Below are positions 48,908 to 50,045 of a stretch of DNA of 64,000 nt, one piece after another. The first letter of the stretch is position 1; each line of letters opens with the position of its first letter. This DNA is from Escherichia coli (lineage in GTDB: Bacteria > Pseudomonadota > Gammaproteobacteria > Enterobacterales > Enterobacteriaceae). The position numbers and the translations under genes were made by a program. The stretch is from the NCBI RefSeq assembly GCF_003018235.1, contig NZ_CP027439.1; one strand, given 5' to 3'. A model generated the notes under the pieces. It was given only the letters and a program-made list of their open reading frames with translations, did no database searches and was not told the DNA's origin.

Positions 48908-49271
48908 TTAGTTATTACGTCAGAGGAATTATTGATCTTTACTCCAGATCTTCCTCGTCAATCTCCAGCCATCCACCATAAGCCGACTCGGTATCTTCCG
49001 TATCGTTTTGAGTCGTATCAGTATTGCGTAGAAAATTAAAAGCCGTCGCACCCAATTGATTTTCCACGTATTTGATAATGAGAATTTCATATTTTGAATA
49101 GTTTACCGTATTTTTATTTTCCGATAGTGGAATATATCATTGTCAGCTCTGATTATATAAATAACAGATGAAACATTACCAGCAACGAATGTAAAAATCA
49201 TATCCAAATATATCTTTGGAAGAAATGAATAATAAGGAGGGGAGGCTAAATTCCATTATTAATATCAATGA

Positions 49272-50045
49272 TTAATAATCGTGCCGGCTATCAACCGAAT
49301 GATACTGTGTTAGAACTGCCTGTTTTCGATAGTCATAACGGTGCCAGTTCCATGGCTGAACGCGCCATGGAACTGGCACCAACCCACATCCGGGATGGGG
49401 AAAAAAATCATCAGGATATCGTTGCGCTGCCATTAATGCTTCCCGTCTGCCATCAGAGCACCCGGTAAAGTAGGAATATCTTGCGTTTTGACCGTAAAAT
49501 GCCGTGATCAAAACCCTAGTTGCCTGAGCAGTAAGATGGACACTGCGGTAAGCAAAATCTGTTCGCAACCGCGAATCTTTGCCAAAAGAACCATCGGCTA
49601 CAGTATGTCCCATGTCAGTTGCTGAAGTAACAAAAGAACCATCTGTTATATGGGGGCATCCGCCAGCAGCACCGATTTCATCTGATATTCGTCCACACAA
49701 ACCACCGCAGCCAATCTGAAGAGAACGCTGACGCCAATTCTCTGTTGGTAAACGAACCTCAAAGCCAATCTGAGGAGCCAGACGCCCTGTAACAATGCAG
49801 ACTTTACGGTTTTCATCCAGAGTCGCTTTCAGAACCTGACTTCCCTCCCCGGCAATAGAGGTTAAATCAGTTTGTTGTAGCGCGGAGCAATCAGTGACTG
49901 GATTTATTCCAGCCAAATCTTCATAGTTTTTGGGGGAAACTGGTGTCGCCGGGAAGTGCTTATTTGCGGATAATACGGATACAGGAAAAATGAGAGAGCC
50001 AGTAAAGAGCGCTAATGATATGAAGCACTTCAATTTTCTATTCAT
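49272..50045 (-). pseudogene. Tannase/feruloyl-esterase-family gene, 3'-truncated
   Basis: Signal peptide plus GCSDGRRE (family motif GCSxGG) but only 257 aa against roughly 500+ expected; no continuation in 48950..49270. Confidence 0.5.

Follow-up and report, generated by a model that had tools for sequence, protein, structure and literature searches.

A plasmid-borne tannase/feruloyl-esterase-family gene of Escherichia coli as a probable pseudogene formed by an internal deletion

The shortened esterase gene described here is very probably a pseudogene, generated by an internal, non-homologous deletion of 1,116 bp that occurred as a single event and spread clonally, leaving an inactive product. 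The window, defined as the whole 64,000-nucleotide stretch of E. coli DNA analysed, corresponds in this region to an IncFII-type Escherichia plasmid, with 99.5% identity here to E. coli pSCU-111-1. The esterase occupies the terminal position, on its strand, of a cluster with the order UbiD(AroY-like)–UbiX–DUF554–idi–esterase. The upstream genes were named from their ORFs, the pSCU-111-1 annotation, NCBIfam and Pfam. The features of the cluster and of the esterase gene are as follows.

52179..53651, minus strand: AroY-like UbiD decarboxylase, upstream of the esterase, intact ORF
51584..52168, minus strand: UbiX prenyltransferase, upstream of the esterase, intact ORF (NCBIfam)
50850..51566, minus strand: DUF554 gene, upstream of the esterase, intact ORF (Pfam)
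50211..50759, minus strand: idi, upstream of the esterase, intact ORF
50087..50114, minus strand: promoter-like site, recognised by consensus match alone, preceding the esterase start codon
49404..50045, minus strand: retained 5′ part of the esterase gene, 642 nt, codons 1–214 (tblastn, Pfam, codon comparison)
49403..49404, unstranded: deletion junction, 1,116 bp absent relative to intact orthologues (blastn against L002, L003 and L007–L011)
49272..49403, minus strand: read-through tail, FPHPGCGLVPVPW...SRHDY, of 43 codons and a stop; the equivalent sequence of intact alleles is non-coding 3′ flank
49086..49403, unstranded: 318 bp of native 3′ sequence flanking the esterase gene, common to the intact-gene plasmids
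49340..49380, unstranded: perfect 16-bp inverted repeat in the native 3′ flank, GGTGCCAGTTCCATGG / 9 nt / CCATGGAACTGGCACC (sequence, self-inverted blastn, fold of the L007 equivalent)

Besides idi, DUF554, UbiX and UbiD, the window keeps full-length ORFs for LysR and YhbP. The UbiD protein matches the 3,4-dihydroxybenzoate decarboxylase AroY (5NY5) with an E value of 1.9e-201. At roughly 48800–49200, the GC content drops from about 0.52 to about 0.41, rising again near 55600.

A 1,116-bp gap in the esterase gene

The ORF at 49272..50045 (minus strand) encodes 257 aa, and only residues 1–214 are genuine tannase/feruloyl-esterase sequence. Its match to the Pfam family Tannase (PF07519; E 1.2e-41, 143.6 bits against a cut-off of 29.8) covers residues 82–214, corresponding to profile positions 9–143 of 490. 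The intact orthologue has 584 aa and covers positions 9–488, and the deleted part encodes positions 144–488. The retained residues 1–214 are 97.7% identical to this 584-aa orthologue (tblastn), and the N-terminus resembles a signal peptide by eye. Measured against the expected 584 aa, 37% of the genuine sequence is left in the window. The initial annotation had described a shortened esterase-family ORF of 257 aa, which is confirmed. The annotation had likewise reported no same-frame ORF beyond the stop, a TAA at 49272..49274; four further in-frame stops follow, and the sole ORF there comprises 30 aa with a TTG start.

The 584-aa versions are encoded on the E. albertii plasmid pEA36_2 (L002; WP_273782077.1) and on E. 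coli LR890578.1 (L003). On pEA36_2, the gene order idi, DUF554, UbiX, UbiD and YhbP is the same, and the order is also shared, together with LysR, by E. coli contigs L007–L011, which encode the intact protein P0020 (WP_180562364.1). Intact forms of 580–593 aa occur in E. coli, E. albertii, E. marmotae, Klebsiella, Raoultella and Citrobacter. The window thus resembles the loci of WP_273782077.1 and P0020 in its neighbours (idi, DUF554, UbiX, UbiD, LysR and YhbP) and in its 3′ flank, and differs from them by the absence of codons 215–584 with the stop codon and by the presence of 43 read-through codons.

Alignment to the full-length homologues, which the initial annotation had proposed as a check, places the breakpoint at 49403|49404. 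The same 1,116-bp gap is found at this position against seven independent intact loci (L002, L003 and L007–L011; blastn). The missing segment, equivalent to positions 4643..5758 of L007, consists of 1,113 nt of coding sequence (codons 215–584 plus stop) and 3 nt beyond. From 49404 upward, the window matches L002 and L007–L011 with 99.1–99.2% identity through the 5′ gene part and all upstream sequence; from 49403 downward, it matches sequence that begins 3 nt past the intact stop codon. Both sides of the gap are therefore collinear with the intact locus, and the lost segment is native coding sequence. The uniform gap and the 584-aa homologues bear out the deletion that had been suspected, and no observation spoke against it. 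A search of the window for the deleted 3′ segment by tblastn and blastn returned chance matches only, and the possibility that the missing part lies elsewhere found no copy within this stretch to sustain it.

On the coding strand, the join reads GATGATTTT|TTTCCCC; it is blunt, with microhomology absent. Within 60 bp on either side of the breakpoints, we sought microhomology, direct or inverted repeats of at least 7 bp and IS scars, and found none. The flank at 49086..49403 shows 84% identity to L003 5001..5324 and 94% identity to L007–L011. A hairpin shorter than the 16-bp inverted repeat adjoins the 3′ breakpoint, and the breakpoint lies at the foot of these two flank hairpins; that they favoured the break would be speculation. 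Since the stop codon is deleted, translation runs 43 codons into the 3′ flank, giving the 257-aa product. Consistent with this, the counterpart of window 49232..49403 in L002 is 5332..5503, beyond the stop codon of the L002 gene.

The edge of the island

Features beyond the 3′ flank of the esterase gene define the limits of the island.

49076..49085, unstranded: older junction between esterase-cluster sequence and a backbone-gene remnant, also found beside intact alleles
48939..49075, minus strand: remnant of the 3′ end, 45 codons and the stop, of a gene for a 215-aa hypothetical plasmid protein (protein and nucleotide homology)
48653..48904, unstranded: copy 2 of a repeat, an IncF backbone element of about 255 bp (79% identity between copies)
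47403..47660, unstranded: copy 1 of the repeat, 600–850 bp downstream of repA (45951..46807)

The initial annotation had pointed out a short acidic, C-terminal-like fragment on the minus strand. This fragment exists: the peptide ...DTEDTESAYGGWLEIDEEDLE is encoded at 48939..49067 (minus strand), with homology to relatives reaching 49075. The fragment is 83% identical at the amino acid level to the C-terminus of the 215-aa protein WP_216781593.1 (L004 4039..4686), and nucleotide homology with this gene amounts to 86.8% over 48828..49075. The 215-aa protein matched no family in Pfam or NCBIfam. The fragment as an esterase C-terminus was rejected: the intact esterase ends in ...SPYEFLNSSD, and the fragment matches the unrelated 215-aa protein. 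The reading frame that it shares with the esterase ORF is a coincidence.

The true junction is near 49076–49085: up to 49075, the sequence is homologous to the 215-aa gene, and from about 49086 onward to L003. In L007, the identical junction stands unchanged next to an intact esterase gene. The 49076–49085 junction is older than, and independent of, the esterase deletion. Moreover, the 749 bp from 49403 to 48655 run collinear with 753 bp downstream of the intact gene in L007–L011 (about 94% identity) and include the 318-bp flank, the acidic fragment and the repeat element, inside which the shared context with L007–L011 stops at 48655.

These data bear directly on the proposal of the initial annotation that the truncation arose at the joint of the acquired island and the plasmid backbone and would thus mark the island boundary. 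The esterase gene forms the outer end of the low-GC cluster, and a backbone-gene remnant and a backbone repeat lie 330–750 bp away, all of which would suit such a boundary. At the truncation point, however, no unrelated backbone begins; the 3′ flank that belongs to the gene follows there directly, collinearity with plasmids carrying the intact gene continues to 48655, and the junction near 49076–49085 is unchanged beside intact alleles. A boundary at the truncation is accordingly very unlikely, and the collinearity over 749 bp identifies the deletion as internal rather than as an island/backbone junction. The island edge lies within 48653..49085, 320–750 bp from the deletion, and predates it.

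The repeat at this edge, whose copy 2 is probably the "element B" of the initial annotation, matches thousands of IncF plasmids. The deletion-allele contig L019 carries one hybrid copy (6142..6399), and the 1.25 kb between the copies are absent from it, which indicates that recombination at the island edge uses the element of about 255 bp as its site. A search of 46500..50400 against Rfam gave no match, and the fold of the element (z = -1.6) is not significantly structured. Its position appears to resemble that of the priming (G-site) region downstream of the IncFII oriR.

Several further rearrangements were observed around the cluster. At 47992..48042, the window lacks 988 bp relative to pSCU-111-1, comprising yacB and most of a 3′–5′ exonuclease gene; pSCU-111-1 retains both genes. 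The crossover lies in an imperfect direct repeat of about 13 bp, GCTGGCCAGCCAGG / GCTGCCAGCCAGG, and leaves the antitoxin gene yacA (47725..47994) of the yacAB pair without its toxin gene. This loss is a microhomology deletion, whereas that in the esterase gene is blunt. A 71-bp yacB fragment, 91.5% identical to nt 33–103 of the pSCU-111-1 yacB, lies at 55384..55454, directly past YhbP on the far side of the low-GC cluster; it could represent the opposite edge of the island and the trace of a former insertion or recombination within yacB. At 55841..56157, the window has 317 bp within an IS3-family element that are absent from pSCU-111-1, with a CTGGCGC repeat at the edges; this difference is a small deletion in pSCU-111-1.

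Two observations concern the intact-gene plasmids. In L003 (LR890578.1, 4156..7168, compared with window 49086..51000), the intact esterase and its 3′ flank are inverted relative to idi–DUF554–UbiX–UbiD, with breakpoints equivalent to about 49086 and about 50129–50150 in the window, beside a small palindrome, CACTGTATTACAGTG. This inversion indicates that the esterase module behaves as a separable unit, the end of which coincides with the old junction of the window. In pEA36_2, a 248-bp AT-rich stretch of the window (48984..49231) is absent (L002 5331/5332). The stretch spans the old junction, covering part of the 215-aa-gene remnant and the distal 3′ flank of the esterase gene, and its absence is a separate small deletion in pEA36_2.

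Loss of catalytic residues and distribution of the allele

The intact orthologue is related to Ideonella sakaiensis MHETase (6QZ1; E 4.5e-52) and Aspergillus oryzae FaeB (3WMT; E 4.1e-47), both of the tannase family (ESTHER Block X), and shares their GCSxGG, D and HC motifs. In MHETase, the catalytic triad is S225-D492-H528, and the C224-C529 disulfide ties the Ser to the His (PMC6461665). The window product resembles these enzymes in its N-terminal core with the Ser motif: the nucleophile motif G-C196-S197-D-G (residues 195–199) is kept and aligns with GCSEGG of MHETase. Asp423 (LADQH) and His461-Cys462 (YHCGG) of the orthologue align with the Asp and His-Cys motifs of MHETase, and both are deleted in the window. 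Cys196 consequently remains, while its disulfide partner Cys462 is gone. Unlike MHETase and FaeB, the window product also lacks the region aligning with the lid domain, which confers specificity in the tannase family (PMC6461665). A complete α/β-hydrolase core with lid spans about 490 profile positions; the window product ends at position 143 and is also devoid of the C-terminal part of the core. In addition, the window variant carries G200R in the conserved GCSxGG motif, just after GCSDG. Because the catalytic Asp and His, the disulfide partner, the lid region and the C-terminal core are missing, the 257-aa product is predicted to be incapable of esterase activity, and the gene to be a dead remnant. 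The truncated protein may still be made, as the start codon and the promoter-like site remain.

A word-indexed homologue search with the truncated protein yielded distant matches only, of varied length and mostly on short contigs, and was replaced by an exact-cluster look-up. Three 257-aa variants with one and the same read-through tail were listed on a total of 41 public E. coli contigs, which come from different assemblies: P0021 (18 contigs listed), P0017 of pSCU-111-1 (19) and P0018 of the window (4). The window's variant belongs to the cluster member listed with WP_106907131.1. Among 5,426 complete RefSeq E. coli genomes, the locus occurs only in SCU-111, whose plasmid pSCU-111-1 (NZ_CP051728.1) encodes WP_169062070.1 with the same junction and 257 aa; the DNA is 99.5% identical. 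The deleted lineage carries D128G and A178V, followed by G200R in the window or, in its place, S191F in pSCU-111-1; P0020 reads D128, A178 and G200 at the positions altered in the window. P0021, which has neither private change, is taken as ancestral. Codon comparison gave four non-synonymous changes and one synonymous change in the deleted lineage, a ratio that fits relaxed constraint, although the numbers are too small to prove it. Every locus examined with the deletion allele lies in the same IncFII repA-proximal setting, and the lineage is 99.7–99.95% identical across L012–L015 and L018. The shared tail and setting argue for a single event with clonal spread, and we infer a single origin of the deletion.

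The deletion allele is about as common as the intact alleles in its 90% cluster. Public databases already contain it under the annotation of a normal CDS; the RefSeq entry for the 257-aa product has a protein accession and no pseudogene label. Its persistence in three variants on 41 contigs, with the start codon intact, could be read as a sign that 257 aa is a native short form, or that the remnant has acquired a new function under selection. Such a reading is very improbable, considering that the orthologues have 584 aa, that residues 215–257 are translated 3′ flank including a hairpin, and that the catalytic Asp and His are missing and G200R alters the conserved GCSxGG motif; hitch-hiking on one plasmid lineage explains the persistence. 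An assembly or sequencing artefact of the window has practically no chance of accounting for the gap, as the shared tail and setting already rule it out and the junction recurs in the complete plasmid pSCU-111-1, in many independent NCBI drafts and in a Logan assembly, which show lineage-specific point differences.

Origin of the remnant and the role of the cluster

We propose that the ancestor was a 584-aa secreted hydrolase of the tannase/feruloyl-esterase family, encoded by the last gene of the plasmid-borne cluster. An illegitimate deletion of 1,116 bp fused codon 214 directly to the untranslated 3′ flank of the gene. It would have arisen once, inside the island, when island and backbone of the plasmid were already arranged as they are now, and the resulting allele would then have spread clonally with the IncFII plasmid lineage. 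Given the terminal position of the esterase, its deletion is not expected to act in a polar manner on the decarboxylase genes.

Lactiplantibacillus plantarum has a pathway of tannase and gallate decarboxylase, and AroY is a protocatechuate decarboxylase. The present cluster resembles that pathway in placing an esterase beside a prFMN-dependent UbiD/UbiX decarboxylase, and gene order suggests a similar coupling. The likely role of the cluster is the release and decarboxylation of phenolic acids, such as protocatechuate or gallate: the esterase would hydrolyse the phenolic ester outside the cytoplasm, and the liberated acid would be the intracellular substrate of the decarboxylase. Judging from gene order only, idi in the UbiD/UbiX cluster could provide the dimethylallyl precursor from which the prFMN cofactor is made. 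Literature searches able to show a description of this UbiD/UbiX/esterase cluster found none. The cluster differs from the L. plantarum pathway in that its esterase belongs to another family, the L. plantarum tannase being assigned to ESTHER Block H (PMC6461665), and in that the esterase step is lost in the window. There, the decarboxylase side would be kept.

The loss might have been adaptive, if the AroY-like decarboxylase, UbiX and idi were kept to detoxify free phenolic acids and the periplasmic esterase was dropped, or the secreted 257-aa fragment might have a non-catalytic role. Either is improbable; if true, it would explain the frequency of the deletion allele, which is similar to that of the intact alleles in its 90% cluster.

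Under the reading that we favour, a pseudogene formed by internal deletion, these findings call for a correction of the annotation, as RefSeq lists what is probably a dead remnant as a normal member of the family. They also move the island edge from the esterase truncation to the backbone-gene remnant and repeat at 48653..49085. Plasmids of this lineage would be left with the decarboxylase half alone of a putative pathway for the hydrolysis of phenolic esters and the decarboxylation of the products, a point of relevance to any deduction of tannin or phenolic-ester metabolism from the mere presence of genes.
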